Shown piece by piece: positions 12,110 to 63,085 of a DNA stretch of 64,000 nt. Each line of letters starts with the position of its first letter. The first letter of the stretch is position 1. This DNA comes from Dehalococcoidia bacterium. GTDB lineage: Bacteria > Chloroflexota > Dehalococcoidia > E44-bin15. Under the pieces are notes generated by a model. The model had not been told where the DNA came from and ran no database searches. It saw only the letters and a list, made by a program, of their open reading frames with translations. Position numbers and translations under genes: made by a program. The DNA lies in the NCBI GenBank assembly GCA_041649635.1, contig JBAZMV010000001.1:426164-490163 (forward strand), written 5' to 3'.

Positions 12110-13045
12110 TCCGAGGCGTACGTGCGGCTGTCGGCGGGTGATGCTGTGGCGGTATGCTCCGTTATTAAAAATAGCCCGGCTTCGCCGAGCGTCGGTTCAC
12201 GCTTACATTATACTACCAAATCGATTGTAAGGTAATTGCGGGTTTATGTCAAGAATATGATGGTGTCGGTCGATAGGAAACCGAACCCCCTGTCAGGCCC
12301 CTTTCTCAAAGCTGTCATTGCGAGTCCTTCCACGATAAAATTAGGCGGAAGGACGACGTGGCAATCTCGTAGCTGGTCAACCCCCTGTATCCCCCAATCA
12401 TGGGGGATGAAAAAAAAGATATAGGGGACACCCCTATAACCCCGTCAGGAGACTCTGTCTCCTGTACCTCTCTTAGCTAGCTAACCCCTCTCTCGGAGAG
12501 GTGCCTGGATTCGGATTGTAATATTAATAAACCCGTCTTGTAGGGGCGAGGTCATCTCGCCCTTCAGCCCCACCGTAGGGGCACGGCATGCCGTGCCCGT
12601 TGTGTTCCCCCTCTTTTTAGAAGAGGGGGTTAGGGGGTGTTAATTTAAAATTATTTCCCTCTCCCTGCGCAGGGAGAGGGTCAGGGTGAGGGTCGTACTC
12701 GTCATTCCGGCGAAGGCCGGAATCCGCGTAGGGGCGTATGGCCATACGCCCGTTATTTGGTGGGTTTCTGAACCCACCCTACATACGATCGTTGCGTAAG
12801 GGCTTGATTAATCAAGCCCTTACATCCCGGCCCCTATCGGCGAAAGAGACGACCTCGCCCCTACGCAAATCCCCCTTGCTCCCCCCTTTCATAAAGGGGG
12901 GAGATATATCTCGTTTATATGCTGTTGATGGTGTTCTTCACCTTCAACAATTAGAGGGTGTCCTTCTGCGGAAGGACTCCCGTTATTTGGTGGGTTTGCG
13001 AACCCACCCTACATACTACATACGATCGTTGCGTAGGGGCGAATC
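12110..13045. repeat. Mosaic repeat block (~0.9 kb; F,B,A,C,H,G,E,C,D,I,D,C modules)
   Basis: Contains no coding potential. ORF 12738..13076 in the six-frame track is a translation of D/C/I modules. Confidence 0.85.
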
Positions 13046-14351: not shown

Positions 14352-14940
14352 TGAGGCTCATAAGTAGTCAACCCCCTGCAATCCCCCTTGTCAAGGGGGA
14401 AACAATAACCGAACCCCCTATAGTCCCCCATACGTTGGGGGACAGATATTGTCCGGGGGACACCCCCGGTTCCCCCGGCCCCGATATATCGGGGCACCTC
14501 TTTCTTAAGGGCTGTCACTGAAATGATATAGGGGACACCCCTATAACCCCGTCAGATGGAGCGCTCTCTGTACTCCCCAGCTGTCATTGCGAGGAGTCCT
14601 TCTGTACACCCTAATTATGGAAGGACGACGTGGCAATCTCGTAGCTGTTCAACCCCCTGTTATCCCCCATACGTCGGTCATTATGCAGAGACGCAAAATA
14701 TTGCGTCTCTACGGGGGCGCCCCGCCGTTCGGTCGTCGCGTAGTGGCGAATCTTGTGTTCGCCTTTTACGTCCCTTTGTAGGGGCACGGCATGCCGTGCC
14801 CGTCGTGTTCCCCCTCTTTTTAGAAGAGGGGGTAAGGGGGAGTTAAATACCCTCTCTATTGACTTTGATATCCATAATCGCTAATCTAATCGCATTACAG
14901 AAGCCCGTTCAAATATCCATCAGGGGCAATCTTACTGAGG
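14352..14940. repeat. Mosaic repeat block (B,B',A,F,B,C,C',H)
   Basis: Modules as defined in the summary. Confidence 0.85.
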
Positions 14941-16337: not shown

Positions 16338-16425
16338 GCCGATAAAGGTAAACCCCGGGCGATCGGGGGGCGCAAAGCTACAGGTCTCGAGGTTGAGAGA
16401 GACGGCTGAGCTGCCGAAACAGAGT
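16338..16425 (+). ncRNA. Candidate c-di-GMP-I (GEMM) riboswitch in the 5' leader
   Basis: GGTAAACC + P1 hairpin CCCCGG-GCGA-TCGGGG (GNRA loop) + GGCGCAAAGC, then a second hairpin gcuacagGUCUC..GAGACggcugagc. This matches the GGCAAACC...GNRA...GGACGCAAAGC hallmark of GEMM-I. Confidence 0.45.
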
Positions 16426-26263: not shown

Positions 26264-26375
26264 CTAATCTAGAGGAGGTATAGGTATTAGTTCTCTTATA
26301 TCGCACTTAATTAAGCCTAAACGACATTCAAGAACAGGGAAAATAAATGTACTCCACGTAATAGATCATCTTGGA

Positions 26376-27491
26376 TTGGGCGGAGCACAGACACTGTTAT
26401 TGGATTTGTTAAAGGATTGGGACAGCGAAAAATACAGAGTATATGTCTGCGCTTTAAAGAAGCCAGGGGTATTGGATAAGCAAGCGAAAGCTCAGGGTTT
26501 AAACGTAAGTTATTTTGACAGACAGAAGTATGATCCCAGAAAGATTCTTGACCTGATCAGATTCATCAGGAAGAATAAGATTCAAATAGTTCACACGCAT
26601 CTGCTTGGCGCGGGCATTATTGGGCGGATTGCCGCAACTATTTGCCAAGTGCCAGTTGTGATTGTGCACGACCATAGCGGGTTCCCAATGTTGAGCAATA
26701 TCCCTACAGTATATTCGCGTCTTCTACGTATGATGGATAAACCACTGACGTATGTTACTGATAGAGTTATTGCAGTATCGTATTCAGTGAAAGAGCGGCG
26801 TATTAAAAGGGGATTACCAGATAAAAATAAGGTTGTTGTTATCCACAATGGTATAGATATAAATAAATTCAATAGTGATCTTTATGACAATGACAAAATC
26901 AGAGAGACTATGTCTATCGGTGCATCGGATGTAGTTATAGGGGCTGTTGGGCGTTTAAGTCCTGAGAAGGGGCTTGATTTTCTACTTGAGGCTGCGTCAA
27001 AGATTTATAGTAAATATACGGAAGCTAAGTTGGTCATAATTGGCGATGGGCCATGCAGAAATATGTTAGAGCAACAAACCATCGACCTGGGGATAAGTGA
27101 GAAGGTCATTTTCACCGGATTCAGAGATGATGTTCCCGAATTGTTATCGGCGATGGACATATTTGTTTCATCGTCGCTTTTTGAAGCGTTTCCGATGGTT
27201 ATACTAGAGGCAATGTCAATGTCCAAACCGGTGGTTGCTACAAATGTGGGGGGTATTCCAGAGATGATAATACCCGGTGTGACAGGTTTTATAGTGCCGC
27301 CAGGTGATTCAGAGGCTTTATATACAGCTATTATTCAATTGTTGGATGATCCGGACAGAAGGATAACGTTTGGTCAAAATGGGCGGCAACGTATTGAAGA
27401 GTTTTTTACAACGCAAGTCATAGTGAATAAACTAGTAGAGTTATATGATGAACTTGTAGGTTGTAAATTAAATAAGGCACATCTTGAATGA
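26376..27491 (+). CDS. GT4 family glycosyltransferase (true start probably upstream, non-canonical)
   Basis: GGAQ motif and EAFPMVILEAMSMSKPVVATNVGG. The conserved first beta-strand VLHVIDHLGLGGAQ lies in-frame upstream of the first TTG (26376). There is no ATG/GTG/TTG back to the in-frame stop at 26265. A GAGGAGG SD at 26272-78 sits 7 nt before an ATT at 26286. Confidence 0.7.
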   Translation: MGGAQTLLLDLLKDWDSEKYRVYVCALKKPGVLDKQAKAQGLNVSYFDRQKYDPRKILDLIRFIRKNKIQIVHTHLLGAGIIGRIAATICQVPVVIVHDHSGFPMLSNIPTVYSRLLRMMDKPLTYVTDRVIAVSYSVKERRIKRGLPDKNKVVVIHNGIDINKFNSDLYDNDKIRETMSIGASDVVIGAVGRLSPEKGLDFLLEAASKIYSKYTEAKLVIIGDGPCRNMLEQQTIDLGISEKVIFTGFRDDVPELLSAMDIFVSSSLFEAFPMVILEAMSMSKPVVATNVGGIPEMIIPGVTGFIVPPGDSEALYTAIIQLLDDPDRRITFGQNGRQRIEEFFTTQVIVNKLVELYDELVGCKLNKAHLE

Positions 27492-39234: not shown

Positions 39235-40210
39235 TATCTAATTCCTTGTCGACAATCCTTTTGCCGGGTTTTAAACTCACCCTTCCTTCCATATACCGAG
39301 ATGTCATGGAAGGATTCCCTCTCTTTCGTAAAGAGAGGGATGCTTTATATGCTGTTGAAGGTGTTCTTCTCCTTCAACAATTAATTGGGCGAGACAACCT
39401 CGCCCCTACACGCTACCCTCTATGCGCCACCCGTTTTTTTATGGTAGAATCCTGTCATGTTCAAACTGAAATCGTCCCGCGTGCGTGAAGTGGCGGACAC
39501 CACCTTTATCCTTCTGGTCATAGCCCTCACATTCATCCTTTTACTGGGCAGATTCGCCGATGTCAGGCAGTACGTTAGCCTGGACTACTTATTGGCTATT
39601 ATACTTCTAATAGGAGTTTTTTCAATCCTGCTGCGTTCGGAATAACGCAAAACCCGCATGAACTCACCCTCAGGTCCCTCTCTTTCGCAAAGAGAGGGGA
39701 CGAGCTATATCTCCCCCCTTTGGTAAAGGGGGATCGAGGGGGATTTACGTAGGGTGGGTTCAGAAACCCACCAAATAACGCTCGTATGGCCATACGCCCC
39801 TACGCGCCGACCGAATGTAGGGGTTTGATTCATCAAACCCGCGGCCCCCTCCATGGATTCCGGTTTTCACCGGAATGACGAAACGTAGGGTGGGTTTGCG
39901 AACCCACCACGTTGACGAGATTCTTCATCATTCCTAACAAGGATTCAGAATGACAGTCCAAGAGAAGAGAGATTCAGGAGATTCCTCTCCTGACGGGGTT
40001 ATAGGGGTGTCCCCTATCTCTTTTTTTACATCCCCCAAGATTGGGGGATAGCAGGGGGTTGACTAGCAATTGAGATTGCCACGTCGTCCTTCCGAACTGC
40101 GGAGGGACTCCTCGCAATGACAGCCTTGAGAAAGGATGTCCCGTAGGGGCAATTCATGAATTGCCCCTACACGATGACCGAAACGTATGGGGGATTCCAG
40201 GGGGCACAGA
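39235..40210. repeat. Mosaic repeat block (~1 kb; J,I,C,D,C,E,D,F',A,B,F,C' in both orientations)
   Basis: Six-frame ORFs 39246..39488 and 39599..39793 are repeat translations. Confidence 0.85.
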
Positions 40211-44114: not shown

Positions 44115-45105
44115 CTCTTTAACTAATCCCTGACTCAGGAATCCCCTGGCACTCACCTTTCGAAACGTCGTTCTTCAGAATCGGGAAGTGCAGAGGGCTC
44201 TCCCTCTGCCGGGGTTTCAGGGGTGTCCCCTGTCTCTCTATTTTATGTCCCCCATGATTGGGGGATACAGGGGGTTGATATATCATTTTCAACTCAACCC
44301 ATAAATAAAAAAGGCCGTGCACCCGCCGTCGATCTTACCCCGCGGATCGCCCCTGCCGTTCAGCTCAAACCAGGCAACCCTGCGGCACCCAGAAACCGCT
44401 ATTTACCGCTGCTTCCTTCCGGACCTGACGGGGTTCATAGCATTCTGCCGCGCAGGACCCAATCATCAACACCTCCCTACAGAGACAACTGCCGACAGGA
44501 TTAAGACCTTGGACGGGAATTCAGCCCCGCTATAGCGGATTTCGGGTACAGGGCACCGCTGGCTCCCCGCCTAGCACGACCAAACCTGATACTATCTTAC
44601 CGATATTTCGTTGTCAAGCTTATCGAACTCACCCCGGCCCTCTCTCGCATGAGAAAGAGGTGAAGGAGAAGCTCCTTCCGGGGTAGTACAGGGGTGTCCC
44701 CTGTTTATTTAAATTCCCCCAAGACTGGGGGATAACAGGGGGTTGATGAGATTGCCGCGTCGTCCTTCCGTAGTCAGAGTGTATGGAAGGACTCCTCGCA
44801 ATGACAGTCAGAAATAGATACGTAGGGTGGGTTCGCAAACCCACCGCGTAGGGGTAACCCCCCGTGGTTACCCTCCCAAAGGGCAGGGCAAGCCCTGCCC
44901 CTACGTTTATTCCGGCCTTCGCCGGAATGACGGCTTCGGAAAGAGGTGCCCCGATAAATCGGGGCCGGGGGAACCGGGGGTGTCCCCCGGATTATTCTAT
45001 GTCCCCCAACGTATGGGGGACTACCAGGGGGTTCGGTTATTGTTTCCCCCTTAAAAAGGGGGATTCCAGGGGGTTGACACCTCTTATCTCATTCCTATAT
45101 GTTGT
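44115..45105. repeat. Mosaic repeat block (~1 kb; A,B reversed; A,B,F,D,E,A',B,B')
   Basis: The N-terminal 83 codons of six-frame ORF 44864..45991 are a repeat translation. Confidence 0.85.
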
Positions 45106-45991: not shown

Positions 45992-46785
45992 ACTCGCCCT
46001 TCCTTCCATGATATTGAGGTATATCTCCCCCCTTTATGAAAGGGGGATCAGGGGGATTTACGTAGGGCGGGTTTCCAACCCGCCGCGTAGGGAGACGTAT
46101 TCGTATGGTGGGTTCACAAACCCACCATGTTGACGAGATTCTTCATCGTTCCCAGCAAGGATTCAGAATGACAGCCTTGAGAAAGGGGAGTCCAGAGGGA
46201 GCACCCTCTGACGGGGTTATAGGGGTGTCCCCTATATCTTTTTTTTCATCCCCCAAGATTGGGGGATACAGGGGGTTGATGATAGTTGAGATTGCCACGT
46301 CGTCTTTCCGAACTGCTGAAGTACTCCTCGCAATGACAGTCCAAGAGAACAGAGGTTCAGTTTGTAGGGCGGGTTTCCAACCCGCCGAATAACGGGCGAA
46401 TGATTATTCGCCCCTACGTGGATTCCGGCCTTCGCCGGAATGACGGGTACGACCCTCACCCTGACCCTCTCCCTGCAGAGGGAGAGGGAAATAATTTTTA
46501 AATTAACACCCCCTAACCCCCTCTTCTCAAAAGAGGGGGAAGAGGCTCCGCCTCGGGGTTTTACCGACACTAAAGATTATGGTTTATTCACGCTCACTTT
46601 AGTCCTCTCCCCTCAAGGTAGAGGTTAGCTTCTCACAGAGGTACAGGAGACCCTGTCTCCTGACGGGGTTATAGGGGTGTCCCCTATCTATTTTTTTATA
46701 TCCCCCATGACTGGGGGATTCCAGGGGGTTGAACCTAACCTACCGGACGGTTGCCTAATTCTCAATCTCCATATAAAATAGTAAA
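45992..46785. repeat. Mosaic repeat block (J,D,D,F',A,B,F,D,C,E,G,H,A,B mostly reversed)
   Basis: Modules as defined in the summary. Confidence 0.85.
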
Positions 46786-58039: not shown

Positions 58040-58635
58040 AGAGCACGAACTCCCCCTAACCCTCTCTTTAATAAAGAGGGGGAAGTCCTTCCATGGAAGG
58101 ACAGGGGTGTCTCGTATTCCGTAGGGGCATCCTTCCATATGCCTTAATGTCATGGAAGGATTGTGCCTGCCCTCTGTGGGCGACCACGAGGGTCGCCCCT
58201 ACGCGATGACCAACGTATCGGGGATTCAAGGGGTTGAATATCGACTAGATTGCCGCGTCGTCCTTCCATATACCGTGATATCATGAAAGGACTCCTCGCA
58301 ATGACAGGCAGTAACAGGGGAGTATAGAGGGATCGCCCTCTGACGGGGTTTTAGGGGTGTCCCCTATCTTTTTTAACGTCCCCCAAGATTGGGGGACAAC
58401 AGGGGGTTGATTCCAACGAGATTCTTCATCCTTCCAGAGAATCTTATTATGGAAGGATTCAGAATGACAGGTTAAAATTAAAAGAGGTACAGGAGAAATT
58501 CTCCTGATGGGGGAACTGGGGGTGTCCCCCAGATTTATTAATGTCCCCCAACGTATGGGGGACTACTAGGGGGTTCGGTTATCGTTTCCCCCTTCAAGGG
58601 GGACCGCAGGGGGTCCCAACTAAACTAGAGGCGAC
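58040..58635. repeat. Mosaic repeat block (H,J,C-like,B,F,A,B,J,A',B,B')
   Basis: Separates thioesterase paralogs 2 and 3. Confidence 0.85.
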
Positions 58636-59074: not shown

Positions 59075-59509
59075 ATGATTCAACGCACTTTGATATTATG
59101 TAAACCTGATGCCATCGAGCGCAGGCTCGGGGGAGAGATACTCGCCCGACTGGAAAAGGCCGGGCTCAAGATCGTGGCCATGAAGATGCTGTGGATGGAC
59201 GAAGCGCTGGCAAAGCGACATTATGCCGTCCATGCGGATAAGCCCTTCTTTAACGACCTGCTTAAATTCATAACATCCGACCCGATAATCGCCGCCGTCT
59301 TCGAGGGCGAGAACGCCATAGAGGTGGCGCGCAACACTATGGGCAAGACCGATCCGGCCAAGGCCGACAAAGGAACGATCAGAGCCGACCTGGGAGAGAG
59401 CATCGAGCGCAACATGGTCCACGGCTCCGATTCGCCGGAGAATGCCGAGATAGAGATAAAGAACTTCTTCAAGCCCGAGGAGATTCTAAAATATACTACT
59501 CGATCCTGA
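59075..59509 (+). CDS. ndk: Nucleoside diphosphate kinase
   Basis: ERTLILCKPDAIER-like N-terminus and NMVHGSDS active-site His motif. Confidence 0.9.
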   Translation: MIQRTLILCKPDAIERRLGGEILARLEKAGLKIVAMKMLWMDEALAKRHYAVHADKPFFNDLLKFITSDPIIAAVFEGENAIEVARNTMGKTDPAKADKGTIRADLGESIERNMVHGSDSPENAEIEIKNFFKPEEILKYTTRS

Positions 59510-59804
59510 CCAGGGATTTGGCCTTGGACCAGAGCTTGTCCAGCTTGTAGTATTTCCGCTCATCGGCGCCGAAGATGTGGACGATAACGTCGCCGTAGTC
59601 CATGAGCAGCCAGCCGGATTCGACATCGCCTTCTTTATGCTTCAGTTTGGGCCCTTTTTTATGAAACGTTTTGTCGATCTCCTCGGCTATGGCCGACGTC
59701 TGGCGCTGGGAGGCCCCGCTGCATATCACAAAGTAATCGGCGAACGAGCACAACTCCCGCACATCCAGCAGAACGATATCCTCCGCCTGCTTGTCCGAGG
59801 CCAC
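59496..59804 (-). CDS. rsfS: Ribosomal silencing factor RsfS (Iojap); true start probably the CTG at 59840
   Basis: DIVLLDV..CSFADYFVICSG and GDVIVHIF...YKLDKLW motifs. The track's GTG start (59804) truncates helix 1. An in-frame CTG at 59838-40 follows a stop directly and is preceded by AAGGAG with a 7-nt spacer. Confidence 0.8.
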   Translation of the reverse strand: MASDKQAEDIVLLDVRELCSFADYFVICSGASQRQTSAIAEEIDKTFHKKGPKLKHKEGDVESGWLLMDYGDVIVHIFGADERKYYKLDKLWSKAKSLVRIE

Positions 59805-59844
59805 CTCAACTATCTTGCGTGCTGTCTTTTCGCCGTTCAGTTAT

Positions 59845-60095
59845 AGACTCCTTATAAATCGATACTCCAATTATAGCATGTCCTCAACGACCGTCATTGC
59901 GAGCGAAGCGAAGCAATCTCCTATTGCGCCGTGTCACAAAACGACGAGATTGCCACGTCGTCCTTCTGCACACCTCAACCAGAAGAAGGGCTCCTCGCAA
60001 TGACAATAAAAGTTACTACACAAACAACGACAGTTGCTTCCCTTATCCGGTTTTGTTAGACTTCCCCAAAGCCCATATTTTCGCGCCGACGGCCG
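59845..60095. repeat. Repeat block (F-family long hairpin)
   Basis: gtcattgcgagcgaagcgaagcaatctc...gagattgccacgtcgtccttc...ctcctcgcaatgaca. Accounts for the spurious N-terminal 68 codons of ORF 59897. Confidence 0.75.

Positions 60096-62699: not shown

Positions 62700-63085
<386 letters not shown>

Follow-up and report, generated by a model that had tools for sequence, protein, structure and literature searches.

Where does translation of rsfS, the gene for the ribosome silencing factor RsfS, begin in Dehalococcoidia? The question was raised by a stretch of 64,000 nucleotides (nt) from a Dehalococcoidia bacterium (GenBank assembly GCA_041649635.1, contig JBAZMV010000001.1, positions 426,164 to 490,163; hereafter the window), in which rsfS lies on the minus strand. 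A mechanical list of open reading frames (ORFs) opens the gene at GTG 59804-59802, giving a product of 102 amino acids (aa), and the same start was used in a public gene call (P0002). With this start, 8 residues (MASDKQAE) stand ahead of the DIVLLDV strand. Upstream of the GTG the frame reads L-N-G-E-K-T-A-R-K-I-V-E-V-A-S back to a TAA at 59843-59841, the first of these codons being CTG. Counted from the CTG, 20 residues precede DIVLLDV, as they do in E. coli RsfS (E. coli sequence verified by tblastn).

The original prediction, made from the letters of the window, was that rsfS is initiated at this CTG behind the Shine-Dalgarno (SD) sequence AAGGAG and not at the GTG. Its details on the minus strand (AAGGAG, the 7-nt spacing, TAA, CTG, GTG and the residue counts) were all correct to the base, and the proposed start was strongly supported by ortholog conservation, codon periodicity, Pfam and Protein Data Bank (PDB) alignments and an AlphaFold2 (AF2) model. 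We conclude with high confidence that rsfS is translated from CUG 59840-59838 as its normal, conserved start rather than from GTG, a choice that the comparative data, the structures and the profile all favour. Window-wide, the motif AAGGAG-N7-CTG is by itself compatible with chance and not significant (found once versus 0.33 expected, and at least once in 25 of 100 shuffles). The case for CTG therefore rests on the homologous position of the N-terminus and on conservation in 157 genes.

Conservation of the start codon among orthologs

Ortholog loci were taken from species-representative genomes (80) and metagenomes (80), with a few added by exact-protein look-up. All were from Dehalococcoidia or unclassified Chloroflexota metagenome-assembled genomes and encoded proteins with 55-91% identity to the RsfS of the window. 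Among 157 distinct rsfS coding sequences (CDS), the aligned start codon was CTG in 148, TTG in 6 and ATG in 2; in the remaining one (L096) a CTG is found two codons further upstream owing to a two-residue insertion, and was counted to give a CTG total of 149/157. No other leucine codon was found at the aligned start in the orthologs, and CTG makes up 37% (316/849) of the internal leucine codons of the same genes. The CTG start is not confined to the window genome but is ancestral to the whole sampled clade.

Entropies were calculated for the first 85 loci. Of the three bases of the start codon, T2 and G3 were invariant (85/85) and C1 was present in 80, with an entropy of 0.37 bits; four-fold degenerate and third positions nearby were near saturation at 1.6-1.9 bits. 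Codons 2-12 gave 0.70, 0.45 and 1.54 bits at the first, second and third codon positions, the same periodicity as was found for codons 2-25. In the 45 nt ahead of the CTG the values were 1.72, 1.82 and 1.71 bits, with no periodicity, the sole low-entropy block there being purine-rich and located at -13 to -9. Codon-periodic conservation therefore sets in exactly at the CTG, and is periodic from +4.

Signals for initiation and transcription were retained along with the codon. The block at -13 to -9 is an SD of the GGAGG, AGGAG or GGAG type, which stands 6-9 nt upstream of the aligned codon in 78/82 loci. The promoter element, TGnTATAAT, is centred on a distance of about 30 nt: a TAnAAT hexamer is found 20-45 nt upstream in 132/155 loci, of which 125 also carry the TG of an extended -10 element. 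In 107 of the 148 CTG loci the frame contains no canonical start from the upstream stop down to the CTG, and 71 of the 148 have an in-frame stop no more than two codons upstream of it. Downstream, the orthologs differ in where they first offer a canonical start (residue 6, 10, 11, 13, 20, 23, 24 and so on up to 79) or have none, and no such alternative is conserved. Counted from the aligned codon, 82/82 genome-derived orthologs have exactly 114 codons. Within the sub-clade of the window gene (84-91% identity) neither the CTG nor its spacing to the SD changes, while the 6-7-nt spacer varies freely (tctataa, tctctca, tatagcg, taaaccg, tatggcg, tacggtg, ttgtcg, ctggcg and ttggcg). As looked for in a near-cognate start, there is no canonical start for the full-length product, the SD is at functional spacing (about 5-10 nt), and the codon is replaced only by start codons.

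The N-terminal codons in profile and structure

The product of the CTG start scored 118.9 bits against Pfam RsfS (PF02410; cutoff 21.6) and aligned to positions 2-98 of the 98 in the profile; with the GTG start the score was 114.1 bits and the alignment began at position 7 (7-98). RsfS chains in the PDB (B. halodurans, S. aureus, E. coli and others) have residue numbering identical to that of the 114-aa product, with a best phmmer E-value of 4e-26. An AF2 model of this product, built on 22 relatives, had a mean predicted local distance difference test (pLDDT) score of 90 and a predicted template modelling score of 0.84. Helix alpha1 spans residues 3-16 in the model (pLDDT 90-96), and every solved RsfS structure has it as part of the fold. 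Foldseek aligned the model to S. aureus RsfS bound to the 50S subunit (6sj6_9) over 113/114 columns (template modelling score 0.87, root-mean-square deviation 1.8 Å), and 4wcw, 2o5a and 7bl2 were matched as well. Membership of the RsfS family is indicated both by the profile score, which is above the threshold, and by the alpha/beta fold of the model with its N-terminal helix on the sheet.

The twelve codons upstream of the GTG are coding, and the alignments to Pfam and to PDB chains require the residues that they encode. According to the model, a start at GTG would cut into helix alpha1 and would keep just four of its residues. The original prediction would have been contradicted by orthologs that lack the extended helix; the helix is kept in all of them. 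By homology, the 114-aa RsfS would be expected to bind uL14 on the 50S subunit and to block subunit joining.

Specificity of the CTG start

The original prediction had also extended the use of non-canonical starts behind strong SDs to the organism as a whole, citing a candidate ATT start at 26286. In the window and the fetched loci (0.5 Mb), ORFs of 100 codons or more were searched for codons that precede their first canonical start and have a suitably spaced strong SD. Of 44 hits for SD and CTG, 40 were rsfS; the other 4 were within the range for arbitrary codons (1-9 each), which is the background level. Genome-wide use of CTG behind strong SDs was therefore rejected, and this wider part of the prediction did not hold. 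The CTG start is specific to rsfS and common to the lineage, and not a property of the whole genome.

The ATT case concerns a GT4 glycosyltransferase gene (window 26273-26376, plus strand), in which AGGAGG stands 7 nt upstream of ATT 26286. Its first canonical start, TTG 26376, is codon 31, 30 codons past the ATT and inside the GLGGA loop. A start there would remove the beta1 strand (INVLHVIDHLG), which is kept by every homolog. The closest relative (L170, 80% identity) has GGGAGG, a 10-nt spacer and ATG five codons ahead of the beta1 strand, and its upstream DNA is unrelated. Since L170 has a normal ATG start and unrelated upstream DNA, the native 5' end of the window gene has been lost and replaced. 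The gene is either initiated at ATT or is a start-less remnant. What stands of the earlier suggestion is that an ATT start is plausible, as a case from a single genome.

Alternative explanations

Three other accounts of the start position were considered. Initiation at GTG 59804 would yield a 102-aa RsfS that lacks helix 1, and the conservation upstream would be that of a 5' untranslated region (UTR). GTG is a canonical start and is the choice of Prodigal-type callers (P0002 and eight other 102-aa entries), but it has no SD ahead of it, the 12 upstream codons vary with coding periodicity, unlike a UTR, the first downstream canonical start is at differing residues or absent among orthologs, and the truncated helix is part of every solved RsfS fold; we consider this account very improbable. 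The TAA-CTG junction could instead reflect a sequencing or assembly error, or the recent loss of an ATG, GTG or TTG, with the gene damaged in one genome. Three close relatives with ATG, GTG or TTG one to two codons upstream of the CTG (L001, L085 and L092/L095) might be taken to suggest as much; these codons fall inside the spacer by chance, however, at 0-3 nt from the SD, too near for efficient use, and the spacing of the CTG is 6-7 nt in all. Other close relatives (L090, L081, L091 and L094) likewise have no nearby canonical start, and 107 independent assemblies are in the same situation, which leaves error or recent damage exceedingly improbable. Virtually no weight is given to the in-frame ATA at 59813-59811 (codon 10): although ATA is among the near-cognate start codons (class II), no suitably spaced SD precedes it, orthologs do not keep it (ATA, ATT, ATC, GCN or GTN), and helix 1 would still be truncated.

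If initiation at CTG is accepted, it may still be asked whether the codon is maintained by selection. The eight genes with TTG or ATG are each nested among CTG neighbours, so CTG is ancestral, and a canonical start has replaced it independently six to seven times. A single substitution turns CTG into TTG, ATG or GTG and yields a stronger working start. That the C has been kept in ~95% of lineages, down to ~50% protein identity, points to selection against stronger initiation, and argues for purifying selection on CTG in excess of the mere need for some start codon. A neutral account would accept the CTG start as real and regard its conservation as a frozen accident, the level of RsfS being unimportant and the codon serving no regulatory purpose. 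The lineages that switched to TTG or ATG look otherwise normal and no regulatory RNA structure was detected at the rsfS start, both as this account would have it. Against it, C1 was kept in 149/157 genes to ~50% protein identity while synonymous sites were saturated, and the three single-base changes that each give a stronger start are nonetheless rare, the signature of selection against stronger initiation. Neutral conservation is thus judged unlikely.

Proposed role of the CUG start

On the reading preferred here, in which CUG is the selected start, an extended -10 promoter belonging to rsfS itself would drive its transcription, the 5' UTR being ~22 nt long. The SD and its 7-nt spacer would position the 30S subunit so that fMet-tRNAfMet reads CUG by two Watson-Crick pairs, with a C.U mismatch at the first position, presumably with fMet as the first residue, and the product would be a 114-residue RsfS with a complete helix alpha1. 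In E. coli, the output from CUG is 1-2% of that from AUG (bioRxiv 10.1101/063800), and CUG forms less stable initiation complexes than do AUG, GUG and UUG (PMC11497404). The role of CUG, which would be held in the sampled Dehalococcoidia by purifying selection against UUG, AUG and GUG, is most likely to hold down the synthesis of RsfS, an anti-association factor of the 50S subunit, by weak initiation.

Initiation factor 3 (IF3) discriminates against non-canonical starts, and this is the basis of infC autoregulation (PMC5499595). By analogy with the AUU of infC, initiation of rsfS may possibly depend on IF3, with RsfS synthesis varying inversely with IF3 proofreading. RsfS could then serve as a read-out of IF3 capacity: with too little IF3 for the free 30S subunits, CUG would escape discrimination, more RsfS would be made and 50S subunits would be sequestered. 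We put this forward tentatively and think it rather doubtful; if true, the two anti-association factors of the ribosome would be cross-regulated, an arrangement fixed in a lineage with slow growth and few ribosomes. Neither infC nor an initiator tRNA gene was found in the window or in the fetched loci.

Several points weigh against the preferred reading. With six to seven lineages having moved to TTG or ATG, CTG is not indispensable, and the efficiency of CUG in E. coli may not hold for Dehalococcoidia ribosomes. A strong SD and a good promoter combined with a weak start are not an obvious route to low expression. In E. coli extracts, ppGpp (guanosine tetraphosphate) and nutrient limitation depress non-AUG mRNAs (PMC5499595), which weighs against a simple derepression of rsfS on starvation. 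Annotated rsfS starts in 14 diverse bacteria were ATG in 11, TTG in 2 and GTG in 1; RsfS does not need a weak start generally, and a weak start as a universal trait of rsfS was rejected. Lastly, no direct initiation data (fMet peptide, toeprint or start-site ribosome profiling) for Dehalococcoidia were found in the literature.

Annotation and significance

Two GenBank assemblies (GCA_018830745.1 and GCA_001796765.1) carry a 114-aa ribosome silencing factor annotated from CTG, so homology-aware annotation has already caught individual instances. Among the 120 closest RsfS proteins in the database (P0001-P0120), the first residue is correct in just 13; 42 begin too late, inside helix 1, and 65 too early, in non-coding DNA. 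The CTG start is the cause of this systematic mis-annotation. Unless annotation is homology-aware, a systematic error enters the lengths of Dehalococcoidia RsfS orthologs, their family alignments and their predicted structures. A full-text literature search returned no paper that ties rsfS (iojap) or Dehalococcoidia to a CTG or CUG start; as far as we found, the lineage-wide start has been reached implicitly by some annotation pipelines and is neither described nor explained in the literature. Lineage-wide conserved starts other than AUG, GUG and UUG are very rare in bacteria, and the best studied, the AUU of infC, is a regulatory device. A class-wide CUG on a ribosome silencing factor is a concrete case for asking why a cell would favour the weakest start codon that still works when SD and promoter are both strong.

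The rsfS locus and other features of the window

The elements of the re-defined gene are listed in Table 1. The gene is monocistronic, divergent from rnhB and convergent on ndk.

Table 1. Coordinates of rsfS and its initiation and promoter elements in the window.
Feature	Position	Strand	Remarks
rsfS CDS, re-defined	59496..59840	-	114 codons, CTG (59840-59838) to TAG stop (59498-59496)
CTG initiation codon	59838..59840	-	Codon alignment across 157 distinct orthologs
In-frame TAA abutting the CTG on its 5' side	59841..59843	-	Bars any in-frame start further upstream
Shine-Dalgarno AAGGAG	59848..59853	-	7-nt spacer TCTATAA (ends in TAA), then CTG
Extended -10 element TGcTATAAT	59870..59878	-	Promoter scan: 10/12 matches, TG present
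-35-like ATGACG	59897-59892	-	16-nt spacer to extended -10
GTG in the rsfS frame, internal Val13 codon under the CTG start	59802..59804	-	First canonical start in frame; no SD before it
rsfS codons 2-12 (NGEKTARKIVE), most of helix alpha1	59805..59837	-	Coding periodicity and AF2 helix 3-16

The region around the rsfS start folds no better than shuffled sequences (z = +0.55); it is unstructured, and a regulatory RNA structure was rejected. A coupled upstream ORF (uORF), the sole one in frame, running from a TTG at ~59870 to the TAA at 59841, was rejected as it is not conserved; it is probably not fully transcribed, because its TTG sits within or just past the -10 box.

The 3' ends of ndk (plus strand, 59075-59509) and rsfS overlap by 14 nt (59496-59509), and the gene order rnhB, rsfS, ndk, 4HBT thioesterase is retained in relatives L081, L086 and L087. 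In a close sub-clade (L081-L084), a gene of 159-196 aa with a weak match to Phage_T4_End_IV (at ~870-1465) is inserted between rnhB and rsfS. It ends 2 nt before the rsfS CTG, so coupling of termination and reinitiation at the CTG is possible there.

A dispersed family of short palindromic repeats resembling repetitive extragenic palindromic (REP) sequences or miniature inverted-repeat transposable elements (MITEs), with GTCATTGCGAGGAG termini, has 9 matches in the window against 0.67 expected. One copy (59893-60004) occupies the rnhB-rsfS intergenic region; it is 112 bp long, its 11-nt terminal inverted repeats are perfect, one of its ends reaches into the -35-like hexamer of the rsfS promoter, and L001 has no copy at the corresponding place. 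Further modules were located near 12348, 14583-14642, 34934, 40072-40121, 44748-44805, 46288-46337, 58242-58305 and 62872-62933. Two RNA elements were also identified: a variant of the c-di-GMP-I-GGC riboswitch (Rfam; 16338-16419, plus strand; 63.4 bits, gathering threshold 59) and a Bacterial large signal recognition particle (SRP) RNA (44315-44579, minus strand; 199 bits), just downstream of which lies the repeat copy at ~44748-44805.

Comparison with known systems

IF3 and RsfS both oppose the joining of ribosomal subunits. Like infC, rsfS of the sampled Dehalococcoidia is a gene of the translation apparatus with a conserved non-canonical start behind a functional SD (PMC5499595), and in E. 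coli CUG belongs to the same near-cognate class, at 1-2%, as the AUU and AUC of infC and AUA (bioRxiv 10.1101/063800). The two differ in that the rsfS codon is CUG and not AUU, and that RsfS is not the discriminating factor, so any such control would be cross-regulation and not autoregulation. The likeness to infC is an analogy, the conserved non-canonical start being the sole prerequisite that is shared.

E. coli rsfS (ybeB) is of the same family, likewise has 20 residues before the first strand and also has a non-AUG start, UUG (PMC10917681), which was confirmed as TTG in locus L171. Unlike the CUG of the window gene, UUG is canonical and gives 10-100% of the output of AUG, CUG being about tenfold weaker (bioRxiv 10.1101/063800). 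E. coli rsfS also stands in an operon in which rlmH comes after it (nadD-holA...rsfS-rlmH context), whereas the window rsfS is monocistronic. A further parallel may be drawn with pcnB, which encodes poly(A) polymerase I: Binns and Masters reportedly described in 2002 that its AUU start limits expression in enterobacteria. There too a non-canonical start restrains a protein that is harmful in excess; the gene, the codon and the lineage all differ from those of the CUG-initiated rsfS.
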